Positions 1,478-31,986 of a stretch of DNA of 38,544 nucleotides are shown here, piece after piece. Position 1 is the stretch's first letter, and each line of letters opens with the position of its first letter. The translations under genes and the position numbers were made by a program. The notes beneath the pieces are model-generated. The model saw only the letters and a list, made by a program, of their open reading frames with translations. It had not been told where the DNA came from and searched no databases. This DNA is from a virus (taxonomy: Duplodnaviria > Heunggongvirae > Uroviricota > Caudoviricetes): the IMG/VR virus record IMGVR_UViG_2698536428_000019. One strand, given 5' to 3'.

Positions 1478-1835
1478 TCGACCGAACCTTTGGCAACCGG
1501 ATAGCGGGGGCTTTCACCCCCGCTGCGGTTTCTTACGGTTTACACTGCAAGAACGCCGCAAATTCTGACCACATGATGTTAAGTCTGAACTCACACGGCG
1601 AACGGTGTATCATCCAGACTGTCAACAACATGGTTAAGCATAAAATGCTCACGATGATCGTTTTTTGCGGCATAGCGCTTGCTCCTTTTTCAAAGAGGCG
1701 CTAACCTTCCACTTGCGAAGGTTAGATGGTTAGGGCCTCGGGTTAAACAAATGTTTGACTCGGGGCCTTTTCACATCCGGCCTTCAGGTAATCCTTCCAG
1801 CCGTCAGCCGAAAGGCACCCACGTGTAATCTACTG
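1478..1835. repeat. direct repeat, copy 1 of 2 (about 360 bp)
   Basis: Near-identical to 1950..2311 with scattered substitutions and small indels (offset about 472-476 bp); begins with the GC hairpin agcgggggctttcacccccgct. Confidence 0.85.
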
Positions 1836-1949: not shown

Positions 1950-2311
1950 TATCGACTGAACCCGACAACCGGATAGCGGGGGCTTTCACCCCCGCTGCGG
2001 TTTCTTACTGTTTACACTGCAAGAACGCCGCAAATTCTGACCACATGATGTTAAGTCTGAACTCACACGGCGAACGGTGTATCATCCAGATGGCCAACAA
2101 CATGGTTAAGCATAAAATGCTCACGATGATCGTTTTTTGCAGCATAGCGCTTGACTCCTTTTACAGGGAGGCGCTAACCTTCCACTTGTCTAGGGTAGGA
2201 ATGGTTAGGGCCTCGGGTTAAACAATATGTTTGACTCGGGGCCTTTCCACATCCGGCCTTCAGGTTTTCCTTCCAGCCGTCAGCCGAAAGGCACCCGCGC
2301 GTAATGTACTG
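1950..2311. repeat. direct repeat, copy 2 of 2; abuts the prophage ogr end
   Basis: Same unit as 1478..1835; its right edge encodes the last codons of the ogr-like ORF. Confidence 0.85.
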
Positions 2312-13888: not shown

Positions 13889-14514
13889 AGGTTGTTGATA
13901 ATGATTTCCGTCACTTTCTGTCTGTCGGCTTCACTGAATCCCAGCAGTTCGCGTTGCGGATAGCGGACGGCATTACCGGCAGAGACCAGTGACACTTCGC
14001 CGAACTGATGAACGCGGGCAATGCGGGCTGCGCGGCCTTCAAATCCCACGCTGACGCCGCCGGGATCGGTTTTTACCTTCAGAAAGCGGTTTGTCCGAAG
14101 CTGCTCAAACATGGGTGGACGCTTAATGGCGCTCTGCGTTCGCCTGCGGGTGTCAATTTCCAGGTATTCTTCAATATCGGCTTTGTGGAACGAGCGTATT
14201 CCCCGGCGCTCCGTGTCGTAACCGGTGATCATGGGGCCGTACCGGCCGGTTGTTGTCCGCCAGTTTTTCAGTCGTCTCACCTGAGTGCCGTTCCAGATGA
14301 ACACCACACCTGCCTGGACACGGAATACACGTTTTTTACGGGCGGGCCACCGGTTACCGTCCGGTGATTGTTGCGAACGTATACGCTTTTGTTGCGCGGC
14401 GCGGACAGCCTGACCGACAGCACGTGCTGTTTTGTTTATACCGGCAGCGGACAGACCACTGAGGATCTCCTGAAAGAGACCGTCCAGTCTGTGCAGGTCA
14501 TCCGGAGCCATCAT
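13870..14514 (-). CDS. virion morphogenesis / tail completion protein (P2 S-like)
   Basis: Start chosen at the ATGATG overlapping the R 3' end; the ORF-track start at 14616 would overlap R extensively. Confidence 0.7.
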   Translation of the reverse strand: MMAPDDLHRLDGLFQEILSGLSAAGINKTARAVGQAVRAAQQKRIRSQQSPDGNRWPARKKRVFRVQAGVVFIWNGTQVRRLKNWRTTTGRYGPMITGYDTERRGIRSFHKADIEEYLEIDTRRRTQSAIKRPPMFEQLRTNRFLKVKTDPGGVSVGFEGRAARIARVHQFGEVSLVSAGNAVRYPQRELLGFSEADRQKVTEIIINNLWRNTR

Positions 14515-14965
14515 TCTGACCCCATGTGACATCTTCGAGGGTGACGTGCCATGCTTCCAGGGCCCGGCTGACAGGCGGCTCTCCGATGTGTTCTGCGTGA
14601 ACAGTGCCATCATCATTACGGCGGATAATCACCCGCTCCCATACCGGGATTTCCAGCAGGATATCGGTGCTGTCGTCGTCATTGATGGCAACAGAAAATT
14701 TGATATCCCTGTTTTTCTCCGGATTAAGCAGGAGATCAGGCTGATTGCGGTACAGCCAGCGCATCAGCGGCACCATCAGTTCATCGAGATCCTGCGTGAA
14801 GTCCATGACAAAGATCCCAAGCGTGTAACGGTAAAGATATGAGGGGGATTCGCCGGTCGTCTCAATGCCTCCGTTATTCACATACACAGTGAATTTCTCC
14901 GGGTTGGCGCGACACCATGGGCAGGCGTCAGTCATGGCGTCGCGCAGGGTGTTAATTTTCAGCAT
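14498..14965 (-). CDS. tail completion protein R homolog
   Basis: 155 aa, same size and position as P2 gpR upstream of S and V. Confidence 0.8.
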   Translation of the reverse strand: MLKINTLRDAMTDACPWCRANPEKFTVYVNNGGIETTGESPSYLYRYTLGIFVMDFTQDLDELMVPLMRWLYRNQPDLLLNPEKNRDIKFSVAINDDDSTDILLEIPVWERVIIRRNDDGTVHAEHIGEPPVSRALEAWHVTLEDVTWGQNDGSG

Positions 14966-14980
14966 GCCCCCTCCTGTGTG

Positions 14981-15154
14981 TTATGGCATGTTCTGGTTGT
15001 TCTGTTGTGCAGACTTCTGACTGATTTTTTCAGCGGCGCGCTCGTCAATTTTTCGCTGAAAATAATTTCTGATAACACTGTAACCGCCGCTGATCAGATA
15101 CAGCGCGCAGACTGCAGTACAGAAATACAGCATGATCTGATGAATGAATAACAT
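14981..15154 (-). CDS. small single-pass membrane protein (57 aa), unknown function
   Basis: MLFIHQIMLYFCTAVCALYLISGGY then a basic tail; ATG preceded by SD gaggtg (the ORF-track start at 15169 lacks an SD). Confidence 0.45.
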   Translation of the reverse strand: MLFIHQIMLYFCTAVCALYLISGGYSVIRNYFQRKIDERAAEKISQKSAQQNNQNMP

Positions 15155-15299
15155 AATCACCTCACACAAATGATTGACATAACGATGTCTGGCGTTTTAA
15201 AAAAATGAATAACAATAATAAACACTCTCCATAATTCCTCTTGCGCTCCCGTCAGGTATCTTCTCCTCTAAGTCTTGCCTGCCGGGAGCCTCTTTTTTC

Positions 15300-17345
15300 T
15301 TATGCGGCGTTGCTGTTATTGATATCCACCGTCACATACTCAATCAGCACGGGGTAGGTGTCCTGGTTACTGGTGATATCCGTGATCAGCAGTTTGTCGT
15401 TATCCAGTCCTGCCGCCGGGCATTTCGCCAGATTAAAGGCCGCCTGGGTCTGACCGTTGATGACCGGTGTCACGCTGATGCTGTTATTTCCGGCAAACCG
15501 GAACACCACGTTGTGCCAGTTATGATTAAATGCCCCGAAGGTTCCCAGTTTTGCATTCTGTTGTTTGTGCTGCATCAGATTCAGGTTTGCGCTGTCGCTC
15601 TGGATGAAGAAGGCTGCCAGCATATTGTTTCCTGTGCTTCCCTCCGGAACAACGTTTTCAGGTAGCTGAGAAACCGGCCAGTACAGAGCCATGGCGAAGC
15701 GGTTTTCTGCCAGCTGAACACCTTCCGGGATTTTGAAACGAAAGGCAATTTCCCCGCCTTTCTGAAGTAATTCAGTTGCTTTACTTGCAGGCACATCGTG
15801 GGCGATTTTCCAGGCTGTTTGTTGCCCCTGGACTTTTTCCACTCGCACGGCTTTACCGCTCTCAGCAGCAGAGTCATTTACGACGGAGGCTTTTCCATCT
15901 GCCCCTGTCCAGCCCTGTTCTTTCAGTTTCCCTTCCTGTGCGTCTGCGCGATAAGCGACGGCCGTTGTTCTTGCCGGTGATGACTGCGTACCTGCGCCCG
16001 GCTGAGGTGCAGGTGTGGAGGGCTGCGGGCTTTCCGTGGTGGTGCTGTCTGAACCGGCCGTGGCTGGAGGTGCTGCGACCACGCTGAACGGTGCGGGTGC
16101 ACCTTTCAGGAAGGCGACGGTCTTCCCGGCATGCATCAGGATCGCCGTTGCCAGGCGGTCAGAAATAATGCCGCGGCGGGCCCATGAACTGAAATGCGTG
16201 GCGCGATCTGAAGAGGTCCAGTTTCCGTTACTACGGGATGCAGCACCGTAATAACCGGCTTCTGCCAGGTCAGGATCTTCGGCAGGCAGGTTTGTTGGCG
16301 TGTTAGCACCTTTCTCATCGGTCATCAGGGGCACAAAATAAATTTTTTGCGCTTCTTTGTTCTGATATGCACCGTAAACCACCGGGTACTGAGAGGTATA
16401 TTGTTGTTTCCAGATATAGGTGGTATCGCCGCAAATCCAGGGAACAAGTGATGCGTTGCCTCCGGTGCACTGTGCAGCATATGCGCTGAGATCGGCGCGG
16501 AACTGATTCACCATGTTCAGGAATAATTGCGGGTACTGTGCGTATGTTGCTGATTTCAGATCAAACTCTCCCAGCATCCAGACCACGGATAACAGGACGT
16601 TTTTGGGGTTTTTATCCAGCGCGGCTTTTGTACGGGTAAGCAGATCGTTATACAGCGGTTTGCCGACGCCCCACAGGGATGATTCGGCCGTTGCTCCTGA
16701 AGATTCACTGAATGCCCCCTCAGCGCCGGAAGTAAGCGCTGACCCTCCACGACAGCAAGGTACCAGGAGGATCCCTGCATTTTTCGGGATAAACGCCAGT
16801 AATTTTTTGGCAATATGTAAACCCTGTCCGACGCAGCCATACTGACCTTTTGACAGATCGGCGTTCGGATGATTAAGGCTGCTCATATCCTGTACATCAT
16901 GGAGACAGTGATCTGCCGGAATAATATCGTTATAGGTACATGCAGCGCCGCCCGGTGTTACCGTACTGCGACGCGCTAACTGTTTAATTCGTGGATCAGG
17001 ACTGTCGAATGTATCGGGTAATGGCAGCCCCTCACCGTATGCCATGCCATTGGACTGACCAGCCAGTGGCACCACATAATAAAACTCTGGCTCAGTTGTG
17101 TGTCCAGTGTCGTATCCGTCGGTAGTGCCCGGTACGGGGTTTTCCTCGCCTTCTGGTACCGGAATGGCTGATGGCAGGTCTCTGTCAGTGACCAGTGCCT
17201 GCATCAGGTAAAATGGTGCTCCCGGCTCTGATGCTGAGACAGGTCCCCCAAGAAGTCCCCATCCTTCCCTGAGCATGGGCGCAAGTTTTTCGGCAAGTTC
17301 CTTGTTCGTCATTGCCGTCACAAGCTGATAATGTTTCGGTACCAT
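15300..17345 (-). CDS. nanS: NanS-p-like sialate 9-O-acetylesterase (DUF1737 N-terminus plus SGNH/SASA-type esterase domain), prophage cargo
   Basis: 681 aa from the ATG with SD ggag (MVPKHYQLVTAMTNKELAEKL...); architecture matches prophage-encoded NanS-p esterases of EHEC prophages as recalled. Confidence 0.75.
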   Translation of the reverse strand: MVPKHYQLVTAMTNKELAEKLAPMLREGWGLLGGPVSASEPGAPFYLMQALVTDRDLPSAIPVPEGEENPVPGTTDGYDTGHTTEPEFYYVVPLAGQSNGMAYGEGLPLPDTFDSPDPRIKQLARRSTVTPGGAACTYNDIIPADHCLHDVQDMSSLNHPNADLSKGQYGCVGQGLHIAKKLLAFIPKNAGILLVPCCRGGSALTSGAEGAFSESSGATAESSLWGVGKPLYNDLLTRTKAALDKNPKNVLLSVVWMLGEFDLKSATYAQYPQLFLNMVNQFRADLSAYAAQCTGGNASLVPWICGDTTYIWKQQYTSQYPVVYGAYQNKEAQKIYFVPLMTDEKGANTPTNLPAEDPDLAEAGYYGAASRSNGNWTSSDRATHFSSWARRGIISDRLATAILMHAGKTVAFLKGAPAPFSVVAAPPATAGSDSTTTESPQPSTPAPQPGAGTQSSPARTTAVAYRADAQEGKLKEQGWTGADGKASVVNDSAAESGKAVRVEKVQGQQTAWKIAHDVPASKATELLQKGGEIAFRFKIPEGVQLAENRFAMALYWPVSQLPENVVPEGSTGNNMLAAFFIQSDSANLNLMQHKQQNAKLGTFGAFNHNWHNVVFRFAGNNSISVTPVINGQTQAAFNLAKCPAAGLDNDKLLITDITSNQDTYPVLIEYVTVDINNSNAA

Positions 17346-17355
17346 AGTGACTCCG

Positions 17356-17631
17356 TTATTTTTCATGAGTGTTCATTCGTGCTGTCCGCTGCCGCTCCAG
17401 CCCGGCAATGGCGGCTTTATCGGCATTACAACTGTCCAGGGCATCTACCAGTCGGTCTCCCCAGTCAGCCACATCAGCCCATATCATGTGTTGCGGCAGC
17501 ACCGGTACCGGTGTCTGTCTGGTCAGACTTTCCGGCACGCTCCCGCAAATGACGCCGGTTTTCAGCGGCGCTGGCGTGTTGTTGCAGGCTGTCAGCAACA
17601 TCAGCAGGGGGAGGAGTGCGTGCGCACTCAT
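17356..17631 (-). CDS. o-spanin lipoprotein (Rz1 / LysC-like)
   Basis: MSAHALLPLLMLLTAC: signal peptide with lipobox; overlaps the 3' end of the i-spanin gene in another frame. Confidence 0.7.
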   Translation of the reverse strand: MSAHALLPLLMLLTACNNTPAPLKTGVICGSVPESLTRQTPVPVLPQHMIWADVADWGDRLVDALDSCNADKAAIAGLERQRTARMNTHEK

Positions 17632-17899
17632 CCGCCTGTAAGTTTTTCCGCATCGTTTCACGTCGTTCTTCCCCTCTGGCTGCACGCTCCTGATCTTCGC
17701 GCCGGATAGCGGCCAGCGCTGACTGTGTCTCCGCCGTGGCCTTAAGCAACTCCCGGACGGTCGTATTGCTCTCTTTCACGGCTTTTTCCAGCGCTTCATA
17801 ACGGGTGCTCTCCTGACCTGAGCGATAGGCCCGGATGACCACCATTGCCTGCAGCGAAATGGTCAGCAGCAGCGCACAAAGGATAATGTTCAGTTTCAT
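17474..17899 (-). CDS. i-spanin (Rz / LysB-like)
   Basis: MKLNIILCALLLTISLQAMVV N-terminal TM followed by a charged coiled-coil region; ATGA overlap with the endolysin stop. Confidence 0.75.
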   Translation of the reverse strand: MKLNIILCALLLTISLQAMVVIRAYRSGQESTRYEALEKAVKESNTTVRELLKATAETQSALAAIRREDQERAARGEERRETMRKNLQADECARTPPPADVADSLQQHASAAENRRHLRERAGKSDQTDTGTGAAATHDMG

Positions 17900-18447
17900 G
17901 GCTGCGCTCCCGCGTCTTTCAGGCACCAGTTCTTAAAATCATTCCGGCGGTTAACCAGTCCCTGCGTGCGCGTTCCGCCACTGTTCACAAAATCTGTCAG
18001 CCGGTAACACATGAGGCGCCATTGCCGTGTCTGCGCGTGTTTCCAGATGGTGGTGCGTTGCGGCGTGCCGTTTTTGTTTTTAAACCACATCAGATTCCGG
18101 CAGCCCAGGTTAAAGGCGGCGTCCGTCATGGCTTCGAATGCAGACTGCGGCATCTGCTGCCCCCTGAAATTCTGTGTGATGCAGTTCTCAGCGCGGCGCA
18201 TATCGTTGATCCACCGCCCGGCCACTTCCTCCTGTGTGTACAGGCGGTTTTCCACGTTACCGGTGGATCCGCATCCGACCGTACCGACCCCCACCAGATC
18301 ACGGTAGGGTCGGGCCCGGCACTCCTCCCATGTGGCAATTTTGATTTGTGCCTCGCGGGAGGTTCTCAGTTCTCCGGGAGCCAGGGAGATCCCCAGCGCC
18401 ACAATGGCGGCCACGGCGTAACGCTTAGGTCCGGCCATCGTGCTCAT
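17896..18447 (-). CDS. endolysin, T4-lysozyme-like, probable SAR (signal-anchor-release) type
   Basis: Hydrophobic N-terminus (YAVAAIVALGISLAPG) followed by an E...D...T lysozyme core (EECRARPYRDLVGVGTVGCG); resembles phage 21-type SAR endolysins. Confidence 0.8.
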   Translation of the reverse strand: MSTMAGPKRYAVAAIVALGISLAPGELRTSREAQIKIATWEECRARPYRDLVGVGTVGCGSTGNVENRLYTQEEVAGRWINDMRRAENCITQNFRGQQMPQSAFEAMTDAAFNLGCRNLMWFKNKNGTPQRTTIWKHAQTRQWRLMCYRLTDFVNSGGTRTQGLVNRRNDFKNWCLKDAGAQP

Positions 18448-18721
18448 CCTGCTTCAGAAGCATCATTGCCCGGCGCTCTGCGTCGTTCAGCTCCCTTCCT
18501 TCTGACTGCATAAGGATTTTTTCAATCAGTTCGTTGCGCCTTGCCTGGGCGATCTCCATCCTGCGGCGGTGAAGCCAGGCACGAAGCAGTGACAGCGTTC
18601 CCAGCACAAAACCGGCCACGGCAATTTTTTCGCTCAGCGTCATCACGCCGATACCGGCTGTCGTCACTGACGCCCAGAACGTGATGTGATCACAAAGCCG
18701 CTGAAACATTCTCACCCCCAC
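18425..18721 (-). CDS. holin (possible dual-start holin/antiholin)
   Basis: 98 aa with two hydrophobic segments; N-terminus MGVRM has two Met separated by a basic residue; sits between X and the endolysin. Confidence 0.65.
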   Translation of the reverse strand: MGVRMFQRLCDHITFWASVTTAGIGVMTLSEKIAVAGFVLGTLSLLRAWLHRRRMEIAQARRNELIEKILMQSEGRELNDAERRAMMLLKQDEHDGRT

Positions 18722-31603: not shown

Positions 31604-31986
31604 GGTGTTGCCTCTTCGTTTGTGAATTTTGAAAACTCACCAACCAGAGGTGGAAAACTCAGGGTGGCGAGACGTACAGGGTTTCCACAACCGGCAAACG
31701 AAGAAACCGGCCCGACCGAAGTCGGCCCTGTACGCCCCGCCATAATTCTGACGCGAAAAAGACGTGGCGATACAGTACGCACAAAAAAACCGCTGGCGCG
31801 GCTGTGCGCTTCGTTTGTCAGCGGGGTGGAAATCCCGGCACCCGTTTTATGAGGTGCAGCGGAAATGTAACCCGACACGACGAGCGCTGGCAAGCGGTTT
31901 TTGTGTTGCGTGCTGATGTGGTTAGAATGTGGCGAATTAATATCACCTGGCAACTGGTGATTGTCTGCATACGCGGGGTGTTTCTG

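Follow-up and report, generated by a model that had tools for sequence, protein, structure and literature searches.

The 145-nt spacer between a sialate esterase gene and a small membrane-protein gene in an Escherichia coli prophage is, on balance, best read as a gene for a Pas-like small regulatory RNA that travels in a mobile esterase–DUF1378 cassette, and not as one half of a toxin–antitoxin pair. The unit within it is a probable sRNA and, judging from its sequence, a new variant of the Pas-like prophage sRNAs. RNAs of this kind matter. In EHEC and EPEC, the prophage sRNAs AsxR and AgvB and the Pas RNAs rewire host regulation. An initial annotation of the DNA had picked out a 57-residue ORF with its Shine–Dalgarno (SD) sequence, a TTGACA and a TTAAAA box separated by 17 nt on the opposite strand, a stem-loop with a T-run and a short frame reading MESVYYCYSFF, and every one of these is where it was said to be (Table 1). 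The annotation went on to liken the layout, candidate sRNA included, to type I toxin–antitoxin systems. The sRNA half of that comparison has gained ground; the toxin–antitoxin half has lost it.

The window, by which we mean the whole 38,544-nt stretch of DNA that was analyzed, is a P2-like E. coli prophage. A prophage beside serS in E. coli SCU-106 is 99.9% identical to it, and both have the gene order lysC, esterase, DUF1378, gpR. Elsewhere in the window are two Hok/Gef-like ORFs (1533..1673 and 2005..2145), and RefSeq names the matching genes of SCU-106 Hok/Gef family proteins. The late operon of the window prophage holds an imported cassette between lysC and gpR, made up of a NanS-p-type sialate esterase gene, the spacer and DUF1378. 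The esterase has DUF1737, SASA and DUF6645 domains in Pfam, also matches phrog_143 and is annotated in SCU-106 as a DUF6645/SASA esterase. Its annotated start, in coordinates converted from SCU-106, lies 10 nt past the lysC stop, and its own stop codon occupies 15300..15302. At the other end, gpR is the first native P2-type gene past the cassette and sets the downstream boundary.

Table 1. Features of the spacer and its flanking genes, in window coordinates
Feature	Position	Strand	Details
P2 gpR tail-completion gene	14498..14965	minus	PF06891 (P2_Phage_GpR), 137 bits; SCU-106-type annotation
DUF1378 gene, 57 aa (MLFIHQ...)	14981..15154	minus	PF07125; SD GAGGTG at 15159..15164, 4 nt before ATG
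Candidate sigma-70 promoter	15174..15203	plus	-35 TTGACA at 15174..15179; 17-nt spacer; TTAAAA at 15197..15202
Mini-ORF MESVYYCYSFF	15197..15232	minus	SD AGAGGA at 15236..15241
Predicted small RNA, ~90 nt	15209..15298	plus	Start inferred from the -35 + 35 nt rule
Intrinsic-terminator-like hairpin and tail	15245..15298	plus	Hairpin 15245..15289, CTC, T6 at 15293..15298
NanS-p-type sialate O-acetylesterase gene	15300..17366	minus	First cassette gene; RefSeq start 17346

The cassette has relatives elsewhere. The esterase gene is ~93.5% identical in nucleotide sequence to that of lambdoid STEC prophages, and the figure is again 93.5% for the stretch that takes in the esterase, the spacer and codons 1–19 of DUF1378; in those prophages the order is esterase, spacer, DUF1378, DUF826, holin. 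A Mu-like phage also holds the cassette, RNA-like unit and all. These occurrences suggest that esterase, RNA unit and DUF1378 travel together when they enter P2-like and Mu-like phages. The region in Table 1 would then be the downstream half of a mobile cassette with three parts (NanS-p-type esterase, convergent small-RNA gene, DUF1378). The usual home of this cassette would be lambdoid prophages of the Stx type, with the toxin/Q region on one side and the S-R-Rz lysis genes on the other, and it would have been copied here into a P2-like late operon.

On its plus strand, the spacer has the look of a sigma-70 gene in its own right, with a perfect -35, a weak A-rich -10, a transcript of ~90 nt and a one-way intrinsic terminator. 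An alternative -10 (TAAAAA, 15198..15203, at an 18-nt spacing) has four of six consensus matches and is missing the final T. We set the RNA start by counting 35 nt from the first T of TTGACA, a rule which, when checked on the Pas RNAs, gives 85 nt for PasA (published 85) and 78 nt for PasC (published 79). Five AAN triplets mark the predicted 5' end (AAT AAC AAT AAT AAA in the DNA, 15208..15222), the first A falling just before the predicted start; Hfq is reported to bind repeated A-R-N triplets (PMC4104026). A single-stranded CU-rich stretch follows (15223..15244), TCTCCAT included, and then the hairpin, of 7 + 6 bp with a GCUCCCG/CGGGAGC stem and a CU-rich apical region. The T6 tail ends 1 nt short of the esterase stop codon. 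The hairpin works in one direction: on the sense strand an A-run comes before it and no T-run after it, so it is not a sense-strand terminator. Folding the predicted 96-nt RNA gives -23.2 kcal/mol; dinucleotide shuffles give -11.5 ± 2.4 (z = -4.8), and none of 200 folded as well. The 5' AAN repeats, the unstructured CU-rich and anti-Shine–Dalgarno-like stretch, the GC-clamped hairpin and the U6 tail would together be the hallmarks of an Hfq-binding RNA.

A simple consensus scan calls neither the promoter nor the terminator of this unit, the -10 having no T at position 6 and the hairpin loop being longer than 8 nt. The same scan overlooks the promoter and terminator of the Northern-validated PasA, and its verdict on the window unit therefore says little. 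Between the P2-like copy and a lambdoid copy, 15155..15242 is 100% identical, an 88-nt block spanning the promoter and the 5' part of the RNA; in the coding DNA on either side, identity is 86% and 63%. The conservation could reflect recent transfer and not selection, because window-type copies are few and closely related. All six differences between the two copies fall in the hairpin region (15243..15270) and leave the outer 7-bp stem intact.

The comparison that gives the unit its meaning is with PasA and PasC of EPEC E2348/69, which are Northern-confirmed, Hfq-dependent and abundant in Hfq RIL-seq (Pearl Mizrahi et al. 2021, PMC8550237). Each occupies the gap between a SASA esterase gene and its downstream neighbor and runs antisense to the two ('> < >'), and the published 3' ends of PasC and of a 236-nt PasA species correspond to the equivalent terminator by the esterase stop (PMC8550237 table S6). 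EcOnc52, an Hfq-crosslinking peak (Tree et al. 2014, PMC4104026 table S2), lies in Sakai Sp4 at 1181998..1182075 on the minus strand and abuts an esterase stop at 1182008. The window unit is placed as PasA, PasC, EcOnc51 and EcOnc52 are, immediately 3' of a SASA/NanS-p esterase and convergent with it. With the Pas RNAs it has in common a prophage location, a TTGACA -35, a 17- to 18-nt spacer, an A-rich -10, an RNA of 65 to 90 nt, a GC-rich hairpin with a CU-containing loop, and a U-tail; at the PasA and PasC loci, too, hairpin and T-run come by the esterase stop codon. The terminator adjoins that stop in the window unit, PasC, EcOnc52 and the second unit at the PasA locus. The candidate sRNA of the initial annotation thus finds support: position, orientation and layout are those of PasA, PasC and EcOnc52, and the -35 + 35 rule fits. 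The differences are as plain. The stem is GCUCCCG/CGGGAGC in the window and GCCAGC(A/G) in the Pas RNAs, with no detectable sequence similarity; the host element is a P2-like and not a lambdoid phage; the downstream neighbor is DUF1378, where the Pas loci have a holin or an IS element; and expression and Hfq binding are experimental facts for the Pas RNAs and predictions for the window unit.

From these likenesses we infer that the window RNA is transcribed, that it binds Hfq, that it acts in trans and that it is expressed in the lysogen. It would be made while the late operon is silent, because its promoter would work without Ogr, the late activator of P2, and it would most likely act on host or prophage mRNAs, like PasA and PasC at the equivalent EPEC position. 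When the late operon fires, the RNA would be perfectly complementary to the esterase–DUF1378 junction of the late mRNA, the ribosome-binding site (RBS) of the mini-ORF included.

The strongest argument that the unit is more than chance comes from a wider survey of cassettes. TTGAC[AT] stands 18 to 19 nt from the DUF1378 start codon in all 46 distinct DUF1378-upstream spacers (TTGACA in 43, TTGACT in three). Seen from the other side, every NanS-p-type esterase flank examined has a convergent hairpin and U-tail at the stop codon, with the antisense T-run within 25 nt of that codon in 41 of 41 distinct 3' flanks, and in 39 of the 41 a TTGAC[AT] lies 108 to 147 nt upstream. Between these landmarks the sequences are largely unalignable, and the unit falls into at least eight mutually unalignable classes. 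That of the window is rare: among 5426 complete E. coli genomes only 16 have it, and no phage record does. Its spacer retrieves only near-identical copies with blastn. An nhmmer profile built from 36 Pas/933W-type units has no match at the window locus at E ≤ 100, and an Infernal model (R1) that recovers PasA, PasC, EcOnc52 and 933W leaves the window unit unmatched at E ≤ 10. Pairwise local alignments give p = 0.27–0.46, with a marginal p = 0.045 for the Mu-like class. Rfam has no gathering-score hit in 14800..15500, where only chance-level snoRNA matches appear (E > 2), and its AsxR, AgvB and STnc100 families have no hit in the window. Because none of these searches shows homology, the link between the window unit and the Pas RNAs is one of position and architecture only.

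Could these landmarks be kept without any functional RNA? The hairpin and T-run might serve as an insulator against stray antisense transcription or as a 3' stabilizer of the esterase message, with TTGACA and the A-run retained for sense-strand reasons, for instance as DUF1378 5' leader or mini-ORF stop. The weak -10 and the promoter's escape from the consensus scan lean this way, as do the still putative transcript of the window class and the double duty of the A-run as the mini-ORF stop region. So does the 933W/Sp5-type unit, which Tree et al. do not list among their Hfq peaks; the peaks retained in that screen were all either antisense to coding regions or >100 bp away from them (PMC4104026). 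Yet units of the same layout yield stable, Hfq-bound RNAs with ends matching promoter and terminator (PMC8550237 table S6), and the perfect -35 keeps a fixed spacing from an A-rich -10 across classes that otherwise share almost nothing. An insulator, moreover, needs no promoter 110 to 150 nt upstream, and one is there in nearly every flank class. We regard an RNA-free explanation as quite improbable.

A second alternative accepts the RNA and gives it a different job, as a dedicated cis-antisense regulator that mainly pairs with read-through or leaky late transcripts at the esterase–DUF1378 junction, its trans targets being incidental. Through RNase III cleavage, a block of the mini-ORF RBS or transcriptional interference from its convergent promoter, it would tune or silence the genes past the esterase: DUF1378 and holin in lambdoid phages, DUF1378 and tail genes here. 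The RNA is by construction fully complementary to the intercistronic spacer, the unit is always at an intercistronic junction of a long late operon, and its terminator acts in the antisense direction only. Lysis genes are the next essential genes downstream in lambdoid phages, the RIL-seq partners of PasA include the 3' end of the adjacent esterase mRNA (PMC8550237 supplement), and in the P2-like prophage of strain G1/2 an antisense hairpin and T-run sit in the cassette's other spacer. Against this, RIL-seq links PasA and PasC to many partners in trans, and both are abundant while late genes are off (PMC8550237), the P2-like host has its lysis genes upstream of the cassette and so no obvious lethal gene to guard, and the RNA does not cover the DUF1378 RBS. 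A mainly local role strikes us as unlikely, if less so than the other rival readings.

The toxin–antitoxin reading turns on the nature of DUF1378. The small ORF belongs to a catalogued phage family of unknown function: it matches PF07125 with 95.2 bits against a cutoff of 25 (residues 1–49, on a 59-position model) and phrog_494, also of unknown function, with E = 6e-28, and RefSeq calls it a 'DUF1378 family protein'. A hydrophobic N-terminal segment, at about residues 3–24 (FIHQIMLYFCTAVCALYLISGG), is followed by a charged C-terminal tail. DUF1378 is thus, at 57 aa, the small (<60 aa), hydrophobic, membrane-inserting kind of peptide expected of a type I toxin; the charged tail, of ~30 residues, is unlike that of most such toxins. 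The ORF returned zero matches in PADLOC, NCBIfam and PDB and falls in no recognized type I toxin family, a Pfam scan giving DUF1378 alone. In Stenotrophomonas phage BUCT709 and in a Logan contig, DUF1378 occurs without spacer, RNA unit or esterase; there it overlaps the preceding Rz-like spanin gene by 4 nt and is the last gene of a holin–lysozyme–spanin lysis cassette. Because no minus-strand promoter-like site was found in 14000..18500 (by a crude consensus scan that misses real promoters too), DUF1378 appears to be expressed from the late operon alone. We would see it as a late-expressed small membrane protein of lysis cassettes and not as the RNA's toxin partner. The fallback offered by the initial annotation, an ordinary late-operon protein, fits the findings better.

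As a type I system, DUF1378 would be a membrane-damaging toxin and the divergent plus-strand RNA its antitoxin, acting as IstR-1 does on tisB or blocking the RBS of a coupled mini-ORF, like Sok at mok/hok. The resemblance is real as far as it goes. In hok/mok/sok and tisB/istR-1, as here, a small single-TM peptide gene has an opposite-strand small RNA gene just upstream; like Sok over mok, the window RNA covers the RBS of an upstream frame, its gene spanning both the SD and the ATG of the sense mini-ORF that precedes DUF1378; and the antisense -35 is held at its fixed distance from the DUF1378 start in every spacer class. What those systems have and this one does not is a peptide in a toxin family, above-chance pairing at the toxin start, partners that keep together and a conserved upstream frame; nor did the crude scan find a promoter that would give a toxin mRNA in uninduced cells. 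The RNA gene ends 55 nt short of the DUF1378 ATG (15154) and leaves the SD uncovered. Of dinucleotide shuffles, 56% form a predicted duplex with the DUF1378 start region at least as good as that of the RNA, and 92% do so with the rest of the DUF1378 mRNA. The partners also part company: prophage G1/2 has an esterase–DUF1378 gap of only 64 nt, without promoter or RNA unit, and the PasA, PasC and EcOnc52 units occur at loci without DUF1378. Lacking a toxin-family match, start-region pairing and obligate pairing, the proposed likeness to type I systems is poorly supported, and a toxin–antitoxin role for the DUF1378/RNA pair is unlikely, indeed highly so.

The mini-ORF lies wholly inside the candidate sRNA gene and its promoter. 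Its SD and ATGGAG are present in 43 of 46 distinct spacers and the frame is absent from the other three; elsewhere its length ranges from 4 to 25 aa, the frame shifting with the length of the A-run. To judge from these spacers, the mini-ORF does not encode a conserved peptide. Its role may be to load ribosomes, or it may be no more than the complement of the RNA's TCTCCAT stretch. In A8 copies it ends 7 nt before the DUF1378 ATG, which makes coupling geometrically possible and is a point for the toxin–antitoxin reading. A more elaborate idea is that antisense RNA and mini-ORF form a hok/mok/sok-like switch for DUF1378. Ribosomes at the conserved SD–ATGGAG site would open or couple DUF1378 translation; a constitutive antisense RNA would mask the same site, so that a membrane-active accessory protein of lysis stayed silent until late transcription swamped the RNA. 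An A-run of A7 or A8 would toggle the reach of the mini-ORF (11 aa, or 23 aa in the A8 form) and, with it, the geometry of the antisense -10. If true, this would be a new phage-lysis-linked type I-like module, built from a DUF family that hundreds of Stx phage records contain. We rate it a long shot.

A free-standing prophage sRNA gene, our preferred reading, places the window unit in familiar company. AsxR and AgvB (51–60 nt) and PasD/STnc100 (PasD is ~172 nt) are likewise prophage-encoded RNAs flanking the same esterase gene; they are Hfq-bound, and AsxR is antisense to a late transcript. They differ in lying 5' of the esterase, between stx/Q and nanS-p (PMC4104026; PMC8550237 table S6), a region absent from the window. 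Cataloguing by BLAST has turned up Pas homologues in no more than seven phage genomes (Zhu, Shabalina & Storz 2026 preprint, 10.64898/2026.05.13.724894). The survey suggests that these are what BLAST can see of a much larger group. If its units are transcribed, the sRNA repertoire of pathogenic E. coli has been under-counted, and a fixed partnership between an sRNA gene and a sialic-acid esterase gene would need explaining.

One of the classes is that of the Stx2 phages 933W and Sp5, whose spacer we have not found described as an sRNA in the literature searched. Like the window spacer, it is flanked by nanS-p and DUF1378. The -35 stands 18 nt from the DUF1378 start there and 19 nt in the window, and the two share a TTAAAA/TAAAAA box, TCTCCAT before the hairpin and the T-run at the esterase stop. 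The remainder is unalignable (p = 0.46): at the 5' end there is a CGAAAG hairpin in the 933W type and a run of AAN repeats in the window type. The 933W type also has a CCGCCAGC stem, and the hairpin of the window type is longer. The 933W type occurs in hundreds of Stx phage records, the neighboring DUF1378 gene being carried by 309 records.

Every element that the initial annotation had placed between the esterase gene and the gene for a small membrane peptide, DUF1378, is there when the sequence of 14700..15600 is read (see the table). Its interpretation has fared less evenly. That the locus makes a small plus-strand RNA is likely; that this RNA and the 57-aa peptide form a type I toxin–antitoxin pair is unlikely.

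Landmarks of the esterase–DUF1378 spacer, in positions of the whole stretch
Feature	Position	Strand	Detail
57-aa ORF (DUF1378)	14981..15154	minus	SD GAGGTG at 15159..15164
Candidate promoter	TTGACA 15174..15179, 17-nt spacer, TTAAAA 15197..15202	plus	sequence
A-run	15199..15205		within antisense -10; 7 in the window and in L002 (lambdoid copy); compared with copies L001 (E. coli SCU-106), L011, L093, L094
Tiny ORF MESVYYCYSFF	15197..15232	minus	ORF reading
Hairpin and tail	hairpin 15245..15289, CTC, then T6 15293..15298	plus	sequence
Esterase stop codon, 688-aa ORF	15300..15302	minus	sequence

If transcription is taken to start 35 nt from the first T of TTGACA, the RNA would run from 15209 to 15298, a length of 90 nt. 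The predicted plus-strand RNA, folded as 96 nt, has an energy of -23.2 kcal/mol against -11.5 +/- 2.4 for dinucleotide shuffles (z = -4.8), and none of 200 shuffles did as well. Viewed from the sense strand, the hairpin has an A-run before it and no T-run after it, and is therefore a one-way terminator for antisense transcription. A simple consensus scan called neither the promoter nor the terminator, because position 6 of the -10 is not a T and the hairpin has a longer loop than the scan allows. Applied to PasA, an RNA validated by experiment, the same scan finds neither promoter nor terminator, so we gave its negative no weight as a test.

PasA belongs to the precedents for such a gene. [quoted passage not shown] Table S6 of that paper places PasA on the minus strand of NC_011601, from 743499 to 743415 (85 nt, the major species) or to 743264 (236 nt, minor), and PasC on the same strand from 1290909 to 1290832; both are flanked on either side by plus-strand genes ('> < >'), and the EHEC homologues are given as EcOnc51 and EcOnc52. 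In the loci we retrieved, SASA esterase genes end at 743265 and 1290830, and PasC and the long form of PasA therefore stop 1–2 nt from an esterase stop codon, on the opposite strand. Units at the Pas loci share TTGACA, a 17–18-nt spacer, an A-rich -10, a body of about 35–60 nt, a GC hairpin and T7. Two of them stand in tandem at the PasA locus (L003 2468..2740, equivalent to NC_011601 743267..743539), each with promoter, hairpin and T-run. The one nearer the esterase has almost the same sequence as the unit beneath the EcOnc52 Hfq-crosslinking peak in prophage Sp4 of strain Sakai, a peak that abuts the esterase stop at 1182008; the terminator of this EcOnc52-type unit accounts for the published 236-nt minor species. 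Our start rule predicts lengths of 85 nt (PasA) and 78 nt (PasC); the published figures are 85 and 79 nt. A 2026 preprint (10.64898/2026.05.13.724894) suggests that PasA is processed at its 5' end. The published end lies exactly 35 nt from a perfect TTGACA, so a primary transcript fits better than processing.

The window unit is Pas-like by position and architecture, not by sequence. Built from 36 units of the Pas and 933W types (the latter from Stx phages), an nhmmer profile found nothing at the window locus at E <= 100. An Infernal model built from the same kinds of unit recovered 933W/Sp5 at 86 bits, PasC at 41, both PasA-locus units at 30–31 and EcOnc52 at 29, and weakly the unit of a Mu-like phage (15 bits, E = 0.42), leaving the window and lambdoid L002 units unrecovered at E <= 10. 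On the strength of these two misses we claim no homology to Pas or 933W-type units. Smith–Waterman alignments with shuffles were not significant for the window against 933W (p = 0.46) or against E. coli G1/2 (p = 0.27); against the Mu-like unit a marginal p = 0.045, in the 5' arm of the hairpin, is too weak to build on. Rfam had no match at the locus, whether in a scan of the whole window at its gathering thresholds or in one of the locus itself at E <= 10. Covariation is of no use as evidence here, since RNAalifold on 18 933W-type units predicts only an invariant 7-bp terminator base, with no compensatory changes in that class; between classes the stems differ completely, yet are unalignable. 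With searches and alignments failing, the window unit is best kept outside the PasA/PasC sequence family, as what would be a variant set apart from it.

It is also a rare variant. The spacer returned only 20 near-identical copies by blastn, in 16 of 5426 complete E. coli genomes (12 in a P2-like and 4 in a lambdoid context), and it is absent from 50,697 phage records, where megablast found no match to the locus either. A 20-mer search of IMG/VR viral contigs gave two true copies; in genome contigs it gave chance matches only, in unrelated taxa.

The layout is far more general than the sequence. Eighty IMG/VR loci found through DUF1378, four phage records, L002 and the window yielded 46 distinct spacers. 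Every full-length spacer has a -35, 43 of them TTGACA and 3 TTGACT (46 distinct, with the Mu-like spacer included in this tally). From TTGAC[AT] to the complement of the DUF1378 start codon the distance is always 18–19 nt across the 46 distinct spacers. A TTAAAA/TAAAAA-type box follows 17–18 nt past the -35, and a hairpin with its T-run lies 106–125 nt downstream. A second set, built on the esterase (74 loci, 41 distinct 3' flanks), shows five or more consecutive T on the antisense strand no further than 25 nt from the esterase stop codon in all 41 flanks, and TTGAC[AT] 108–147 nt upstream of that stop in 39. What lies between the landmarks can be sorted into at least 8 classes that do not align with one another, and many hairpins across the classes, the window's included, carry CU-rich apical regions. 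A hypervariable antisense sRNA-like unit stands at the stop codon of every NanS-p-type esterase gene we examined, 933W/Sp5 included, and accompanies that gene when it enters other phage types. The breadth of this pattern exceeds what the BLAST-based Pas survey reported, and it is directly testable.

How the window unit came to sit in a P2-like prophage can be read from its neighbours. The locus is 99–99.9% identical in 9 complete E. coli genomes, among 12 that cover the whole query. In SCU-106 the equivalent region is a P2-like prophage adjoining serS, whose minus-strand late operon runs through capsid/terminase genes, X, a holin-like gene, lysozyme, a LysB-like gene, lysC, esterase, DUF1378, gpR, a gpS-like gene, V, W, J, I and onward. 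Pfam assigns the 57-aa protein to DUF1378 (95 bits, cutoff 25), the gene after it to P2 gpR, and the 688-aa protein to DUF1737 + SASA + DUF6645, the NanS-p architecture of Stx phages. From 15096 to 15900 (esterase, spacer and the first 19 DUF1378 codons) the window is 93.5% identical to lambdoid STEC prophages, in which the order is esterase, spacer, DUF1378, DUF826, class II holin, lysozyme. By this identity and these gene orders, the cassette is an import from lambdoid phages, placed between lysC and gpR; its sole sizeable non-coding stretch is the 145-nt esterase–DUF1378 spacer. In LC727895 (L092 312..2964), a Mu-like phage inserted in an Stx1a phage carries the whole block (esterase, antisense unit, DUF1378, DUF826-like) near its right end, by com/mom-like genes, and so a third phage type has been reached. 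The esterase cassette with its RNA-like unit is thus a mobile module of lambdoid, P2-like and Mu-like phages. In the Stx2 prophage Sp5 of Sakai (L009 4004..5313), nanS-p is broken by IS629 (annotated IS1203), and a 933W-type antisense unit and DUF1378 (ECs1210) are intact downstream of the esterase remnant ECs_5706.

The P2-like copy and L002 are identical over 15155..15242, where the leader of DUF1378, the promoter and the first 34 nt of the RNA lie. Their spacers differ at six positions, all within 15243..15270: a single change immediately 5' to the stem, four at bulge or loop positions, and a sixth that disrupts a pair of the inner stem. The adjacent 100 nt of esterase coding DNA are 86% identical, and DUF1378 past codon 19 is 63% identical. 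Six copies otherwise differ only in the A-run (7 or 8), the T-run (6 or 8) and a few substitutions. Such a pattern would fit selection on the window unit. Recent transfer is the alternative explanation, and it gains from the sample of copies being small and closely related.

The tiny ORF proved not to be a conserved peptide. Of the 46 distinct spacers, 43 have a sense-strand SD and then ATGGAG, with the otherwise unrelated window class among them; the ORF that follows is 4 to 25 aa long, and its frame depends on how many A the run contains that doubles as the antisense -10. With A7 (the window and lambdoid L002) the product has 11 aa; with A8 (most P2-like copies) it extends to 23 aa and stops 7 nt short of the DUF1378 ATG. 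Both A-run states also occur among the 933W-type spacers. The conserved start signal is either a ribosome-loading or coupling site or merely the complement of a functional UCUCCAU in the RNA. It is the sole observation that keeps alive a hok/mok/sok-like reading of the locus, which we regard as very improbable.

Several results speak against a toxin–antitoxin pair. DUF1378 matches no type I toxin family, and NCBIfam, PADLOC and PDB returned nothing that would make it a defence protein or a protein of known structure. The RNA gene ends 55 nt short of the DUF1378 ATG and leaves the SD uncovered. Duplexes of the RNA with the non-overlapping DUF1378 mRNA or with the start region were no better than shuffles (92% and 56% of which scored at least as well). 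No minus-strand promoter was found by the simple consensus scan, which also misses PasA's, and DUF1378 accordingly looks like a late-operon gene. Each element, moreover, occurs without the other, and the two are therefore separable. Stenotrophomonas phage BUCT709 (L091 1938..3153) has lysozyme, directly followed by an Rz-like spanin gene and by DUF1378, which overlaps the spanin stop codon by 4 nt, and no unit; a Logan contig (L096 2721..4153) has holin, lysozyme, a 176-aa gene, DUF1378 and tailspike, with the same 4-nt overlap and again no unit. The P2-like prophage of strain G1/2 also has DUF1378 without a unit, 64 nt from the esterase. Conversely, units are present at the loci of PasA, PasC and Sakai Sp4, where a tblastn search for DUF1378 was negative. 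The RNA unit tracks the esterase 3' end, not DUF1378, and DUF1378 tracks lysis cassettes; its place as last gene of such cassettes outside E. coli prophages points to a role in lysis. The releasin family of the work on Mu is reportedly DUF2730, not DUF1378. A search of genome contigs for DUF1378 gave pattern matches, none confirmed, and a literature search on ECs1210 or Z1467 found nothing relevant. The G1/2 prophage (L183 2923..3323, NZ_CP060083) is a different P2-like one in which esterase and DUF1378 likewise occupy the space between lysC and gpR; its 64-nt gap has a hairpin but no promoter/-35 and no T-run, and its 172-nt DUF1378–gpR spacer has an antisense CU-rich stretch, an 8-bp GC hairpin and T6.

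What might the RNA do? The sequences show the unit's anatomy, its conservation and its positional equivalence to the Pas RNAs; its transcription, Hfq binding and targets are matters we infer. The unit would be a sigma-70 gene independent of Ogr, and with that independence transcription in the lysogen is to be expected. The 5' end of the predicted RNA would offer AAN triplets (AAT AAC AAT AAT AAA in DNA, 15208..15222); Hfq is a binder of repeated A-R-N triplets (PMC4104026). Then would come an unpaired CU-rich stretch resembling an anti-Shine–Dalgarno seed and, at the 3' end, a GC-clamped terminator that finishes in U6. If PasA and PasC are a guide, the RNA would act through Hfq on mRNAs in trans; once the prophage is induced, the late transcript would offer it a perfectly complementary partner as well.

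Other RNA and toxin elements lie elsewhere in the window. Just outside the ogr end of the prophage, by serS, two tandem minus-strand ORFs of 46 aa (1533..1673 and 2005..2145; MPQKTIIVSILCLTMLLTVWMIHRSPCEF...) look like type I toxin genes, and the matching genes of the near-identical strain SCU-106 are annotated in RefSeq as Hok/Gef family; at gathering thresholds, Rfam showed no Sok RNA to go with them. A C4 antisense RNA (31660..31747, minus, 82 bits) adjoins an isrK Hfq-binding RNA (31783..31857, minus, 64 bits) in the early region of the P2-like prophage or next to it, both above the Rfam gathering score, and the pair is an immunity/antirepressor RNA module of P1/P7 type.
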